Virus record (IMG/VR): IMGVR_UViG_3300042922_000323
Coordinates: 1 to 60,976 of that record
Reading direction: 5' to 3' (one strand)
From: a virus
Taxonomy: Duplodnaviria > Heunggongvirae > Uroviricota > Caudoviricetes
Length of the DNA: 60,976 nucleotides
Shown: in pieces, positions 13,233 to 21,137 of the stretch
Numbering within the stretch: position 1 is the stretch's first letter
Layout of the letters: the number at the start of each line of letters is the position of its first letter
Notes under the pieces: model-generated
The model's database searches: none
What the model was told of the DNA's origin: nothing
What the model saw: only the letters and a program-made list of their open reading frames with translations
Made by a program: the position numbers and the translations under genes

Positions 13233-13619
13233 ATGGGGAAGAAAATTAAGATAGCAGAAATAACTATCAAGAAGGGCGATAAGCTAACGATTCGTAACAT
13301 AAATGGAAAAAGTCTGTCAGGAGAGATAATAAACATAAATGAAGAAACAGCTGAAGCGATGTTGTTTGAAACATATACTGATTCAAATATCAGGGTTCAT
13401 CACATTGAAATTATGGCTCAAGCCAGTCTTCCCTCTTTCTATAGCATTTCAGAGGTGCTGACTTTCTCGGAGGCGGCAGAAATTTGGGATATAGACCCCA
13501 GTACACTGCGACATCGGGTTACGAGTGAAGAACTCCAAGAAGGGGTAGATTACAGAAAAAGCAGCAAAGTATGGCTAATCACGAAAAACGCTATGGAAAG
13601 GTTGTATGGAATGAAATAA
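13233..13619 (+). CDS. C-terminal helix-turn-helix DNA-binding protein
   Basis: VLTFSEAAEIWDIDPSTLRH...DYRKS.KVWLIT..AMERLYG. Confidence 0.85.
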   Translation: MGKKIKIAEITIKKGDKLTIRNINGKSLSGEIININEETAEAMLFETYTDSNIRVHHIEIMAQASLPSFYSISEVLTFSEAAEIWDIDPSTLRHRVTSEELQEGVDYRKSSKVWLITKNAMERLYGMK

Positions 13620-13636
13620 CTATATTATTTGAAGAT

Positions 13637-13674
13637 AAAAAACCACACTCCATAAATGGCTGTGTGGTTTTTTT
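13637..13674. terminator. bidirectional terminator at the strand switch
   Basis: AAAAAACCACAC...GTGTGGTTTTTTT. Confidence 0.85.
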
Positions 13675-13703
13675 ATTTAGTTTGCGTGTCGGCAGGTGTA
13701 TTA

Positions 13704-13943
13704 TTATTCCGCCTTTTCGTAGTGAGTAGATGTAGAAGTAATATTAGCTTCTGCCGCCTTACCATCCACATATGCTTCACCCAGTATATACACTGCTACA
13801 GAGCCGATAGCTCCGATGATACCAACCACTTGTGCGGTATCGTTGCCAGAAAGTCCTACAATCGCCCCTATAGAGGTGGCTACACCTGCTATAAGTGCCC
13901 AAAACTTTCTACTTCCTAACTTGCTTGCCCAATCAATTTTCAT
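13704..13943 (-). CDS. putative holin (2 TM)
   Basis: MKIDWASKLGSRKFW...YILGEAYVD, typical clostridial phage holin pattern. Confidence 0.75.
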   Translation of the reverse strand: MKIDWASKLGSRKFWALIAGVATSIGAIVGLSGNDTAQVVGIIGAIGSVAVYILGEAYVDGKAAEANITSTSTHYEKAE

Positions 13944-13956
13944 AATTAACACTCCT

Positions 13957-14136
13957 TTACTTTCCAAGGTATTTAAGCATACTACAGACTATACCTGCCG
14001 CCTGTTCCCTAGTGAGTTCATCCTTCGGATTAAACTCTCCATTACTACCTACCATAATACCTAGCTCTTTACATTTGAGGACTGCGTCTTTAGCCCAGTT
14101 TGCTACTTCATTCCAGTCTACATAAGGTTCTGCCAT
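13957..14136 (-). CDS. stand-alone single SLH (S-layer homology) domain protein, 59 aa (not in ORF track)
   Basis: MAEPYVDWNEVANWAKDAVLKCKELGIMVGSNGEFNPKDELTREQAAGIVCSMLKYLGK; RBS AAAGGGGG. Confidence 0.85.
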   Translation of the reverse strand: MAEPYVDWNEVANWAKDAVLKCKELGIMVGSNGEFNPKDELTREQAAGIVCSMLKYLGK

Positions 14137-14153
14137 CTGATTCGCCCCCTTTC

Positions 14154-14681
14154 TTAACCTGCTACATTACTATCGTCCTTTGGTGCACCTTCAACTGTAC
14201 CGCCTTCATCTTCAATAATCTTTTTCTGTCTTCTTCTAAGGACTGGTAATAACCAACTTAGTTCATCATGCCCTGCATCTAACAAATTCTCTACACAGCT
14301 TTGTGCTTCTCTTAAAAACATTACTGAGTAGGCTAATGTTGATAGGAATACAGCCGCCCCTGCTACTGGTGCTACCCTCACGGATAAGCCACACAAAATC
14401 ATAAGTACTAAAAAGCTAATTAACTTTTTCCTAGTTCCTCTATAAAAATTATCAGAACTAATACTACCTGCCGCTATTGCTTTCTTTATTGAGCCATGTG
14501 GTTTACGTAGAGCATAATACTTGGTTAGAATATCAAGTATCATAGCCCCGCCTAATCCTATTGCGGCGGTATAATACGCATCACTGGGGAATAAAATGTA
14601 ACTAATAACTGACCATAGTAAGGCGAGAAATGGTTTCATTCCCGAGCATACTTTGCCCAAATACTCTAAAATCTCATTCAT
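14154..14681 (-). CDS. holin, toxin secretion/phage lysis holin family
   Basis: TM helices, LDILTK, G.RKKL, EAQSCVEN. Confidence 0.8.
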   Translation of the reverse strand: MNEILEYLGKVCSGMKPFLALLWSVISYILFPSDAYYTAAIGLGGAMILDILTKYYALRKPHGSIKKAIAAGSISSDNFYRGTRKKLISFLVLMILCGLSVRVAPVAGAAVFLSTLAYSVMFLREAQSCVENLLDAGHDELSWLLPVLRRRQKKIIEDEGGTVEGAPKDDSNVAG

Positions 14682-14714
14682 CTTATTGTCCTCCTCATTA
14701 CTCGTCTACTCTAT

Positions 14715-14724
14715 TAGAATAGAC
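14715..14724 (-). promoter_or_regulatory. candidate late promoter motif GTCTATTCTA
   Basis: 34 nt before holin start; identical 10-mer before starts at 49243 and 53604. Confidence 0.5.
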
Positions 14725-14758
14725 TAAAATGAGGAGAGCACTATGTACTCCCGTCATT

Positions 14759-15571
14759 TTATACATCTGTGTACTTATCAATTAATTTAGCTATCTTCTT
14801 AATAATTCGGCTTACCCTCATTTGTGAGATGTTGTATTCCCTGGCGGTCTGTGTCTGTGAATTACCTTCCATCTGAGAGTTTAGTACATTAACCTCAGTG
14901 TCGGTCAACTTAGCCCTTATAGAATCTATTATTGAATCTACATACACCTTATCAACCACATCTATTTCAACATTTTCATCAGCGTGTAATAAATCCATAA
15001 GACAGGTGTCTGGTACATATCGCTGTTTCTCAACTAGTGGGTATGTTACCTTCCCCTCTAATGACTTTACAGGTTGTCCAATCTGTAGCACCTTTGTAAT
15101 CTTTTCTTCCTTCTCGTCAAGCAGCATTGCTAAATCTTCAACAGAAGGCATATATCCGAAATCGTTCTCGACTTTTCTAATATCCATTAGAAGTGAGTGA
15201 GCCGTTCTTGTAAGTCGAATTATATTCGCTGTGTCCCTCAGAAAACATCTAATTTCTCTCACAATAGCAGTAACTGCAAAGGAAGAGAACTTTATACCTC
15301 TTGTAGTATCGAAGGCTTTAATTGCCTTTATATAACCCATACGTCCCAGTTGTAATATATCTTCTTTTTCAAGACCGTTGTTGTCAGCTATTGTTTCGGG
15401 TTTTCCAATGTACTTATGAACGGAGTGCCAAATCAAATTCTCGTTAACTAATAGAACATCGCCCAAATAAGCGGGGTCTTCTTTACAGCGTTCAATGTTA
15501 TCCATTCGGTACATAGAGTAGTAGGTTTTGTCTTTACTGAGGTTTTCCTTTATGTGTTTTGGGAAATCCAT
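14759..15571 (-). CDS. SigB/F/G-like RNA polymerase sigma factor
   Basis: NENLIW..., EDILQLG.MG.IKA...FD..RG.KFSSFA...I..EIR.FLRD, SQM.VSRI. Confidence 0.92.
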   Translation of the reverse strand: MDFPKHIKENLSKDKTYYSMYRMDNIERCKEDPAYLGDVLLVNENLIWHSVHKYIGKPETIADNNGLEKEDILQLGRMGYIKAIKAFDTTRGIKFSSFAVTAIVREIRCFLRDTANIIRLTRTAHSLLMDIRKVENDFGYMPSVEDLAMLLDEKEEKITKVLQIGQPVKSLEGKVTYPLVEKQRYVPDTCLMDLLHADENVEIDVVDKVYVDSIIDSIRAKLTDTEVNVLNSQMEGNSQTQTAREYNISQMRVSRIIKKIAKLIDKYTDV

Positions 15572-15615
15572 TTTAACCCCTCCATATGAGGAGAGCGGGG
15601 TTTAACCCGCCCTCG

Positions 15616-19229: not shown

Positions 19230-21137
19230 TTATTCAACTATCTTGAACTTCCTTCGTGGGTATTCGTAGTTCTTACGTACATCACCCCAACTAGAAATCT
19301 TAGTAAAATATCCTATAATTCTCGTGAGCCAGTCCTCAATCTTACCACCACATATCGGACATGTTGTACCATTACCGACTACGCATGTATGACCATGCTC
19401 ACAAGTTCCAAATCCATAGTTAATGGCAAAGTGTGGAACGCCCGCCTTTAGGGTCATTCTAATAAGCTTCTCCATCACTTCTTCATTTTTAATTTGGTCT
19501 TGAACATTCAAGTGAACAATACCACCACCTGAAACAATGTTCATGAATCTACCTGACAGCTTCACTCTTTCAACAGGACTAACATCAGCTATTACAGGGA
19601 GGTACTGGTTACTATAGAGTTTAAACGGCTGTTCCTTACCATACTTCATGCGGTCTTTGTTAGCAAAAATAACGGCTGTAGACTCCCCAGGAATCTCCTC
19701 AGTATTAAAGCTATAACCACATTCTTTTGTGAACTGTAACGCCATTTTCTCAGTAAACAGCAATACATCTTCTACAAGTTCTGCTCCATCATCTTCTGTA
19801 ATTTCTGTTCCCATGAAATGACACATTTCATAAAGACCATTAATTCCAATAGTGGAGAACAGCATCTTCATATCGAACCAGTGTAATGGTTTAAAAAATT
19901 TCAAGAATCCTGCGTTAACTCTTCTTTGGAGAATTTCTTCTCTATGTACAATCAGAAGGTCTCTACACAATTCAAGTCTCTCTTTAAGTAAATCCCAAAA
20001 CTCTGTCATGTTGTTAGAATCTAAAGCGAGTCGAGCATAATTTATAGTGACAATTCTATGTGAGCCAATATTAAGTCCGCCATTACCGAATGAGTCTGCT
20101 CTGTAGCCCATACGTTCCATGTCATTAATGAAACGGCAACACATAGCAATCTTATTGCCCTCATTAGCGTATATATTATAAACACCTTTGGTAATATTCG
20201 TCTTTGCTACAAACTTCAAAAAGTCTTCATCAAGCGGGTTTCTATTCTCGTCAACTGACATATTAGTTGTCATGACAGGAAATCTATAAGGTAAATTAGT
20301 CGAAGGGTCTCCATTACTAAAGAAACCTGCTACTAACTTCTGAACCTTCATTGTGTACTCAGTATCTACCTGTGTTCCATCAGGAAAATAGGTATGTTCA
20401 AAAATCTTACTTATATTTGCCCTGTCAAATACAGAAATATTGGTGAATGGTGACTGACCTGACACTCTAAATTTGTTATTCATAACGTGAACAAATTTCT
20501 GCCACTGGTTAATAATATAATCAGCACCTTCCTCACTATCAGGGTCTATTCCTTCTTTCTTCAAGTAATAACAAAGGTTTACAAGGAAGTCAGACGGTGC
20601 TACTGCTCCTACAAATTCCTGCGACAAGTCCATAGTAGTTTCTATAACTTGTGCCACAAAACTATCTGAGCGTTTAGGTGGGGCACTGTGTAATTGTCCA
20701 TATGGTCTACCTTCAAGCATAATAGGAGTAGTGCTGTAGGCAAAACAATAAGGCACTTGTATACCGTGACCCGAAGCATCATGGAAATAGAGTATTCCAT
20801 CCCATATTGCTTTCATTGCTCTATTGGCTCTTGCTAATCCAAATCTTTTCTTTGTGTACTTCCATAAGAGGTAGTACCCTTCTAATTTGAGTAATCCCTT
20901 CGTAACTTCTGCTTGGTAATTATTAGCACTCAATTCCTCGTTAGCATTTGCGTTCATATCTACGCTTGTGTCTGCCAATCGTTGAGTGAAATACTTATGG
21001 CTCATTGCCCCCACATCTATCTTCTCGGGGCTAATACCCTCTAACTCCAACAATTTAAGTCCATTAGGGTCGCTCGAATAGTTTGTGTAAAGTTCATCAA
21101 AACCTTTTTCAAAAGTGACATTATACTGCATAATCAA
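19230..21137 (-). CDS. nrdD: anaerobic (class III) ribonucleoside-triphosphate reductase
   Basis: YFHD, MCCR finger loop, C-terminal C..GH...CPICG and RIIGY glycyl-radical loop. Confidence 0.95.
   Translation of the reverse strand: MIMQYNVTFEKGFDELYTNYSSDPNGLKLLELEGISPEKIDVGAMSHKYFTQRLADTSVDMNANANEELSANNYQAEVTKGLLKLEGYYLLWKYTKKRFGLARANRAMKAIWDGILYFHDASGHGIQVPYCFAYSTTPIMLEGRPYGQLHSAPPKRSDSFVAQVIETTMDLSQEFVGAVAPSDFLVNLCYYLKKEGIDPDSEEGADYIINQWQKFVHVMNNKFRVSGQSPFTNISVFDRANISKIFEHTYFPDGTQVDTEYTMKVQKLVAGFFSNGDPSTNLPYRFPVMTTNMSVDENRNPLDEDFLKFVAKTNITKGVYNIYANEGNKIAMCCRFINDMERMGYRADSFGNGGLNIGSHRIVTINYARLALDSNNMTEFWDLLKERLELCRDLLIVHREEILQRRVNAGFLKFFKPLHWFDMKMLFSTIGINGLYEMCHFMGTEITEDDGAELVEDVLLFTEKMALQFTKECGYSFNTEEIPGESTAVIFANKDRMKYGKEQPFKLYSNQYLPVIADVSPVERVKLSGRFMNIVSGGGIVHLNVQDQIKNEEVMEKLIRMTLKAGVPHFAINYGFGTCEHGHTCVVGNGTTCPICGGKIEDWLTRIIGYFTKISSWGDVRKNYEYPRRKFKIVE

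Follow-up and report, generated by a model that had tools for sequence, protein, structure and literature searches.

The lysis cassette of a soil phage (Caudoviricetes) contains a gene that encodes a single SLH domain and nothing else, and we tentatively propose that this gene supplies a functional wall-binding subunit to a multimeric endolysin whose catalytic chain is encoded elsewhere in the genome. The phage is represented by IMG/VR record IMGVR_UViG_3300042922_000323, a sequence of 124,976 bases (39% G+C) that originates from soil metagenomes and that CheckV rates as complete; the stretch analyzed here, termed “the window,” comprises bases 1–60976 of that record. In it, a tight operon on the minus strand encodes a sigma factor, a holin, a 59-residue SLH protein (13957–14136; “mini-SLH” hereafter) and a small two-helix membrane protein. 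The cassette is non-canonical: the slot adjacent to the holin holds the SLH domain only, with no peptidoglycan-hydrolase domain.

That this open reading frame (ORF) constitutes one complete SLH domain, as an earlier note on this DNA had stated, was borne out by Pfam: residues 4–47 match the SLH model (PF00395) over its full length (positions 1–44 of 44), with an E-value of 5.5e-11 and 42.7 bits against a cut-off of 20.8. A full-length match so far above the cut-off is therefore not a chance event. The closest relative of solved structure is the third SLH repeat of Bacillus anthracis Sap (3PYW; E 8e-10). The motifs of the domain, as defined in PMC12285257 (an N-terminal Trp, a GIIxG-type turn and a TRAE-type motif with its Arg), are present as W8 and W14, GIMVG at 26–30 and TREQ at 42–45, and G30 and R43 are invariant in an alignment of ten SLH domains. 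The strong ribosome-binding site and the lack of a signal peptide and of a catalytic domain, all claimed earlier, were likewise evident: an SD-like (Shine-Dalgarno-like) AAAGGGGG lies 8 nt ahead of the ATG, the N-terminus is acidic and without a hydrophobic stretch, and the protein has nothing beyond its SLH domain. The gene lies 17 nt after the holin’s stop codon and 13 nt ahead of the next gene’s ATG. A frameshift fusion of the holin and the SLH domain was considered and dropped, because the SLH frame extends upstream of its ATG by only some 10 codons (a 69-residue open frame) and inspection, short of a formal test, revealed no slippery site in that stretch.

A contig from an independent soil study covers positions 13870–14082 with one difference and spans the junction between the SLH and membrane-protein genes. 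The difference, C>A at position 13994 in this contig of low depth (5.3), changes G48 of mini-SLH to Val, which is the residue found at that position in the SLH domain of the P60-SLH protein described below. The junction between the holin and SLH genes is bridged by no contig from studies other than the likely source.

Where, then, does this phage encode an endolysin? The whole 124,976-base record was searched for ten hydrolase families. The window contains no member of them, and to that extent the earlier claim that no endolysin is recognizable stands; for the genome as a whole it does not. Three matches (NlpC/P60, SLT and M23) all lie beyond the window, and the record is devoid of Amidase_2, Amidase_3, GH25, CHAP, glucosaminidase and Phage_lysozyme2. 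The NlpC/P60 domain (88386–88661; E 2.3e-10) belongs to a minus-strand gene at 88113–88841, the product of which, P60-SLH, also has one C-terminal SLH domain (E 2.7e-13). The protein has 242 residues, or 228 if counted from a better-placed ATG at codon 15, and it has no signal peptide. The earlier note had advised looking for the endolysin in the rest of the genome; P60-SLH is the genome’s only cytoplasmic hydrolase of the endolysin type, and judging by its domains it is most likely the endolysin of this phage. Its gene belongs to a small separate unit (88113–89130, minus strand; L001:1462–2456) that comprises a terminator-like hairpin, a tRNA-Trp (CCA), a 64-residue ORF, the P60-SLH gene and another terminator-like hairpin; the neighbors of the unit are an integrase (85941–87098) and a 183-residue protein with a signal peptide.

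The SLH domain of P60-SLH is a paralogue of mini-SLH. The two are 52% identical and 80% similar over 56 ungapped residues (4–59 of mini-SLH; E 4e-20), and both proteins end in LKYLGK. This domain and a lone 59-residue SLH protein (P0155, 57% identity) are the closest relatives of mini-SLH that were found. Among the cassette endolysins of related phages, the best SLH domain is about 40% identical to mini-SLH, and none is closer than that of P60-SLH. Comparison by codon position gave identities of 61, 75 and 37.5%, a dN of 0.41 and a saturated dS, a pattern that points to a long divergence as coding sequence under protein-level constraint. The P60-SLH protein had no match in a search of viral contigs.

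The history of the slot can be read from related cassettes. Homologues of the holin (40–63% identity) head lysis cassettes at about 35 loci in viral contigs, metagenomes and three genomes (a Brevibacillus, a Sedimentibacter and a Firmicutes metagenome-assembled genome); the nearest cassette relative has a holin protein that is only 63% identical. The order HU, sigma factor, holin is common to the window phage and its relatives, and this order anchors the comparison of the slot. In the nearest locus (L004), these genes are followed by one for a 268-residue Amidase_2-SLH protein, which is the kind of fusion that the earlier note had suggested looking for in relatives, and by one for an 85-residue membrane protein. 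All of the 13 related cassettes that were scanned by Pfam have a full hydrolase in the slot (Amidase_2, Amidase_3 or M23), and a lone SLH domain occupies it in none of them. The binding domains of these 13 enzymes are SLH, SH3 or none recognized, several having one C-terminal SLH. In most of the related loci the hydrolase directly follows the holin; a small ORF intervenes in a few. Because all 13 tested cassettes have a full hydrolase at this place, we infer that the mini-gene is what remained of a cassette endolysin after the loss of its catalytic domain; as an account of the gene’s history, the remnant of a deleted amidase suggested earlier thus holds up. The gene begins only 17 nt from the holin’s stop codon, and therefore no trace of a catalytic domain is left. 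The earlier note had named, as evidence that would speak against its interpretation, a full endolysin at this locus in relatives, deleted here with a clean scar, along with a mini-ORF that is not translated; the full endolysin in the relatives’ slot, one half of that evidence, is what we observed.

Direct searches were less productive. Among 50,697 isolate-phage records, neither DNA nor protein searches produced a match to the region, the mini-protein or the holin. A word-indexed search for mini-SLH homologues of near-equal length returned only the mini-protein itself, and one for longer homologues returned a single match of 488 residues. An exhaustive search of representative proteins gave 17,860 matches, of which the best 150 are all multi-repeat SLH proteins (two to seven stretches), rendering this search uninformative with regard to lone SLH proteins.

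With a profile of SLH domains, 83 small SLH proteins were retrieved from among those of comparable length, and lone SLH genes of 54–59 residues recur in the lysis modules of two other phage lineages. In one lineage, locus L054 encodes, in order, a membrane protein, a lone SLH domain (59 residues), an 84-residue protein, an Amidase_2-SLH protein (262 residues), a 78-residue homologue of the window’s membrane protein and an XhlA-like protein; L065 encodes a membrane protein, a lone SLH domain (57 residues) and a CHAP-SH3-SLH protein. The lone SLH domain of L054 is 67% identical to that of the same locus’s Amidase_2-SLH protein. In the other lineage (L045, L046 and a third contig), a tail fiber gene and a gene for a 259-residue protein are followed by the lone SLH gene (54 residues), XhlA-like and Phage_holin_1 genes, a gene for an Amidase_2 protein without SLH, and an integrase gene. 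The lone genes of L054 and L065 have the same start and are 76% identical, with a dN of 0.147, a dS of 2.4 and hence a dN/dS of about 0.06; they have diverged under strong purifying selection. As a group, these lone genes are 67–79% conserved, whereas the SLH domains of their partner lysins are 55–63% conserved. The low dN/dS and the higher conservation indicate that the stand-alone form can be kept by selection, and by analogy the mini-gene of the window is probably not junk. Other lone SLH ORFs were not used as support: P0203, P0204 and P0181 are found in bacterial chromosomal contexts and resemble fragments or split genes, and the contexts of P0173, P0205 and P0154 are ambiguous. One further contig of small ORFs (L056:2603–4336) has three SLH-bearing genes (262, 96 and 67 residues), of which the 67-residue gene, on the opposite strand, is a near-repeat of part of the 96-residue gene.

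The starts of these lone genes coincide with potential internal start sites in fused lysins. The lone gene’s place is taken in L066 and L067 by a 236-residue Phage_lysozyme2-SLH gene, after which comes an Amidase_2-SH3-SLH gene. The SLH domain of the Phage_lysozyme2-SLH protein of L066 is 79% identical to the lone gene of L065, and residue 177 of that protein corresponds to an in-frame ATG, preceded at 8 nt by AAGGAGG, from which the gene reads MAEIRKDNTPD; the lone genes of L054 and L065 begin similarly, with MAEIKLDNTPD and MANEIIKDNTPD. The start of the lone L045 gene likewise falls at the position of an in-frame ATG, preceded by GAGG at a distance of 8 nt, in the S8-SLH fusion of L068. We surveyed 13 SLH lysins for an in-frame start with an SD site within 20 codons before the SLH domain, classing a lysin as accompanied if it occurs with a lone SLH gene or with a partner that has an internal start. 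Such a site was present in the linker of six of the nine unaccompanied lysins and of none of the four accompanied ones (Fisher p 0.07), and sites of this kind were 4.4-fold enriched in linkers relative to all other parts of the genes (p 0.006). P60-SLH counts among the four accompanied lysins: its linker has no in-frame start with an SD site, and the free SLH domain has its own gene instead. Five endolysins with one SLH domain each (L004:4570–5376, L036:3488–4165, L058:2898–3650, L025:3500–4258 and L043:3681–4319) are candidates for the two-polypeptide type: in each, an in-frame start codon with an SD-like site immediately precedes that domain. The two adjacent endolysins of L066 (2967–4690) and L067 (same coordinates) have one SLH domain each and may form a mixed SLH trimer with two different catalytic heads.

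To bind the pyruvylated secondary cell-wall polymer, SLH domains must be assembled into a spindle of three. Because P60-SLH has a single SLH domain, it would need two more, and we propose that mini-SLH, produced from the holin operon, supplies them. The ancestral cassette would have encoded a holin, an endolysin with one C-terminal SLH domain, and a small membrane protein. The cassette endolysin would then have lost its catalytic domain, with the SLH domain staying behind and starting approximately where such endolysins tend to have an internal start. In the resulting complex, a complete SLH trimer would bear either one catalytic head or two. As neither mini-SLH nor P60-SLH has an export signal, the lesion made by the holin would be the route of both to the wall. 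A remnant of the cassette endolysin, as history, and a separate wall-binding subunit, as present function, thus appear to hold together. A separately encoded subunit of a multimeric lysin was one of the options raised earlier; with the paralogous SLH domain of P60-SLH, the recurrence and selection of lone genes and the structural model described next, it is the best supported of the present functions that were considered, and our preference for it remains a tentative one.

A model of a complex between residues 180–242 of the endolysin and two copies of mini-SLH was scored at 0.86, while the best of three controls scored 0.01. The mark applied to such models is reached by 51 of 78 solved complexes and by 2 of 108 mismatched pairs. 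The contacts agreed to at least 98% between runs, and the pLDDT of the partner was 91. The model supports the notion that the endolysin’s SLH domain and mini-SLH are compatible for packing, and no more than that.

Single-SLH endolysins have precedents. LysBT1, from the Brevibacillus thermoruber prophage PBT1, trimerizes, and its isolated SLH domain forms dimers and trimers (PMC12285257); LysPt1, LysPt7, LysPt9 and LysPt10 come from Paenibacillus thiaminolyticus, the S-layer of which masks the ligand of the single-SLH endolysin domains (bioRxiv 10.64898/2026.09.23.753664). These enzymes consist of a catalytic domain and one C-terminal SLH domain, as do P60-SLH and the Amidase_2-SLH proteins of related cassettes. 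They are described as homotrimers of the full enzyme, whereas here the free SLH domain is separately encoded; the published accounts of LysBT1 and the LysPt enzymes mention no free SLH domain that is separately encoded or internally started, and our literature search turned up no lysis cassette with a lone SLH gene. Endolysins composed of full-length and free binding-domain chains are also established, among them Lys170 and LysIME-EF1 (both 1:3), CTP1L and LysP7951 (1:5), and the two-polypeptide endolysins with internal starts include CD27L and CS74L (PMC9430671, PMC4777826, PMC7098653). The likeness lies in a free binding domain that exists beside a full-length enzyme carrying the same domain, and in the oligomerization of the binding domains; in the window phage, too, the free chain is homologous to the binding domain of the phage’s own endolysin. 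The differences are that the free chain of the known systems arises from an internal start within one gene, whereas here it has its own gene, is only 52% identical to the endolysin’s domain and is encoded in the holin operon, 74 kb from the endolysin. Further, its binding domain is SLH, which functions as a trimer and has not been reported for the heteromeric mechanism.

PlyC, of streptococcal phage C1, is assembled from the catalytic chain PlyCA and eight PlyCB binding chains, encoded by separate genes. The proposed lysin resembles it in that catalytic and wall-binding subunits from separate genes would form one assembled enzyme. However, PlyCA has no binding domain and its gene is adjacent to that of PlyCB, whereas P60-SLH has an SLH domain and its gene is distant; PlyCB has an unrelated fold and forms an octameric ring, whereas the free subunit here would complete a trimer. 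The window phage therefore does not conform to the PlyC type of multimeric lysin. The pseudo-trimers of S-layer proteins (B. anthracis Sap, 3PYW/6BT4; P. alvei SpaA) are built from the same domain family, with the conserved Trp, GIxxG and TRAE-like motifs, and they share three-domain packing with the modeled mini-SLH complex. In those proteins the three domains are part of one secreted chain; here they would be contributed by two or three cytoplasmic chains released by the holin.

Several considerations weigh against a heteromeric P60-SLH/mini-SLH endolysin. Translation of the mini-ORF is something we infer rather than observe, and so are a physical complex with P60-SLH, the stoichiometry given to it and any influence on lysis. 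The role of P60-SLH as the endolysin is deduced from its domain content; its best PHROG matches are tail-protein families, and its gene is located 74 kb from the mini-gene, in a separate unit behind a tRNA. We found no close relative whose holin cassette includes this lone gene. The lone SLH protein P0155 is encoded on a contig of 570 bases (L044), the flanks of which have no match in this genome or in the other loci. The signal of selection stems from other phages and hence bears on the window’s gene by analogy. The divergence between mini-SLH and the P60-SLH domain could predate the loss of the catalytic domain and date from the time of a full endolysin, and the deletion may therefore be recent. 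The L045 endolysin lacks an SLH domain, and a heterotrimer thus cannot explain the lone gene of that locus. The internal-start statistics derive from only 13 genes, some of them related. Finally, solved SLH pseudo-trimers such as Sap (3PYW) may by themselves account for the model’s score of 0.86, homotrimers of either protein cannot be told apart from a heterotrimer by the model, and the tool was calibrated on pairs of single chains, unlike the job of one plus two chains run here.

We also weighed other roles for mini-SLH. The protein could displace the S-layer, the remaining option of the earlier note, or other SLH proteins: homotrimers released through the holin would compete for the pyruvylated wall polymer and loosen the S-layer so that the endolysin and the virions could pass, and the additional envelope layer would thereby have a lysis function of its own. 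We consider this unlikely. Self-association of the isolated LysBT1 domain (PMC12285257) would furnish such homotrimers, and the masking of the SLH ligand in P. thiaminolyticus (bioRxiv 10.64898/2026.09.23.753664) means that competition for these sites is real. The genomes with related holin cassettes are rich in SLH proteins, which dominated the matches to the lone-SLH profile in three host-like genomes, and the lone gene of L045/L046, standing beside an Amidase_2 lysin without SLH, fits a partner-independent role. In three of the four lone-SLH phages (two of the three lineages), however, the lysin has a single paralogous SLH domain, and lone genes coincide with the internal starts of fused lysins; these are the signature of a heteromeric endolysin and not of a competitor. 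Moreover, a stoichiometric competitor must outnumber the very abundant S-layer protein, and free SLH would also compete with the endolysin’s own binding. We similarly doubt the wider notion that free SLH mini-proteins constitute a distinct class of lysis accessories for hosts with SLH-anchored S-layers and are not part of an endolysin; they would be set free along with the endolysin and would detach SLH proteins, those of the S-layer included, from the wall polymer, an envelope-layer-specific function with a logic comparable to that of spanins or mycobacteriophage LysB.

It also seems improbable to us that mini-SLH is an inert remnant, left by a recent deletion of the catalytic domain after P60-SLH had been acquired, with the ORF still open for lack of time. 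The full hydrolase in the slot of all 13 tested relatives and the lone SLH domain in none agree with this, as does the failure to find a same-context homologue in viral, metagenome, genome and isolate-phage collections; short SLH ORFs on bacterial chromosomes are, in addition, often fragments of broken genes. Yet the deletion would by chance have had to yield an ORF of exact domain size with its own ATG and SD site and tight operon spacing, an outcome seen again in L054/L065, where dN/dS is low, and in L045/L046. All consensus residues (the Trp, GIMxG and the Thr-Arg of the TRAE motif) are kept, and nearly the same sequence is present in the second soil study. Least probable in our estimation is a negative regulator: free SLH would cap or poison endolysin trimers or occupy wall sites, such that P60-SLH is held back until the holin triggers or fewer uninfected neighbors are killed after the burst. 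The gene lies between holin-type genes, the usual place of functions that time lysis, the model packs mini-SLH against the endolysin’s SLH domain, and the free binding-domain product of CTP1L regulates activity (PMC4777826). On the other side, known heteromeric endolysins need their free chains for activity and are not inhibited by them (PMC9430671), and a cytoplasmic endolysin is already restrained by the membrane.

The remaining cassette features frame the mini-gene. The sigma factor (14759–15571, minus strand; Pfam Sigma70_r2/r3/r4; phrog_351, E 2.5e-38) adjoins the holin upstream. The holin (14154–14681, minus strand), a protein of 175 residues with about four membrane helices, is encoded by the first gene of the lysis cassette and matches Phage_holin_4_1 (PF05105; E 1.8e-6, 28.5 bits against a cut-off of 22.2) and the holin family phrog_199. 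In its leader (14682–14758, minus strand), a hairpin pairs the holin’s ribosome-binding site: CUCCUCAUU pairs with AAUGAGGAG, and the SD site is inside the latter. The predicted fold has an energy of −27.4 kcal/mol (z −3.9), and none of 200 shuffled sequences was equally stable. This hairpin may exert translational control over the timing of lysis. A word of the leader, GCTCTCCTCAT, recurs just upstream of the sigma gene (~15577–15600).

Downstream of the mini-gene lies that of the two-helix membrane protein, a putative second holin or antiholin by its phrog_297 match and its position (13704–13943, minus strand). The mechanically called ORF (13704–13967, minus strand) begins at a TTG at 13967; a reading of the sequence points to the ATG at 13943 as the probable true start, which gives 79 residues and has an AAGGAG site that overlaps the SLH stop codon. 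The holin assignment is weak (phrog_297 holin, E 0.0035; two hydrophobic helices); of the two flanking holins claimed earlier, then, the upstream one is confirmed and the downstream one is doubtful. The protein is 41% identical to the 85-residue product of the gene after the endolysin in L004 and 42% identical to the 78-residue protein of L054, and its position in the cassette is the same as in relatives. A two-way terminator-like hairpin (13637–13675; A run, CCACAC...GTGTGG, T run), read from the sequence and absent from the list of a consensus terminator scan, closes the cassette against a convergent HTH gene (13233–13619, plus strand). A hint that the host is anaerobic or facultative comes from elsewhere in the window, where a 635-residue anaerobic ribonucleotide reductase is encoded (19230–21137, minus strand; ~30% identity to the enzymes of phages of Clostridium and Desulfovibrio).

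The other two hydrolase matches have different settings. The SLT transglycosylase (113966–114670, plus strand; L010:1165–1869; SLT domain at 114302–114583) has 234 residues and an N-terminal signal peptide or anchor. A homologue is encoded in L004 directly upstream of HU, sigma factor and holin, and the protein may belong to the lysis functions. The M23 domain (63692–63973) is part of a 1159-residue tail protein. Adjoining that protein, a 407-residue tail-region protein and the C-terminal end of the 360-residue ORF upstream of it (64283–66593 of G000:C1; L003) have SLH-like ends; the phage uses SLH-type modules on its virion as well.

To our knowledge, single-SLH endolysins were first described only in 2025–2026, and they were read as homotrimers. 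Our analysis suggests that many of them may instead be two-component enzymes in which a free SLH domain comes from an internal start or from a small gene of its own, genes that usually go unannotated. It also cautions against concluding, from a lysis cassette that lacks an endolysin, that the phage lacks one too. The logic of heteromeric endolysins and of PlyC is known; what is new is the SLH domain for this mechanism, its encoding in a gene of its own and the distance of that gene from the catalytic one. If the proposal is true, the known heteromeric endolysins would be joined by a type in which the trimeric unit of the binding domain sets the stoichiometry, and a separately encoded binding subunit could arise by loss of a catalytic domain. 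The expression of such lysins would likewise have to be approached differently, and so would their engineering as antimicrobials or wall probes for Firmicutes that bear an S-layer, for example Paenibacillus, Brevibacillus and the Clostridia.

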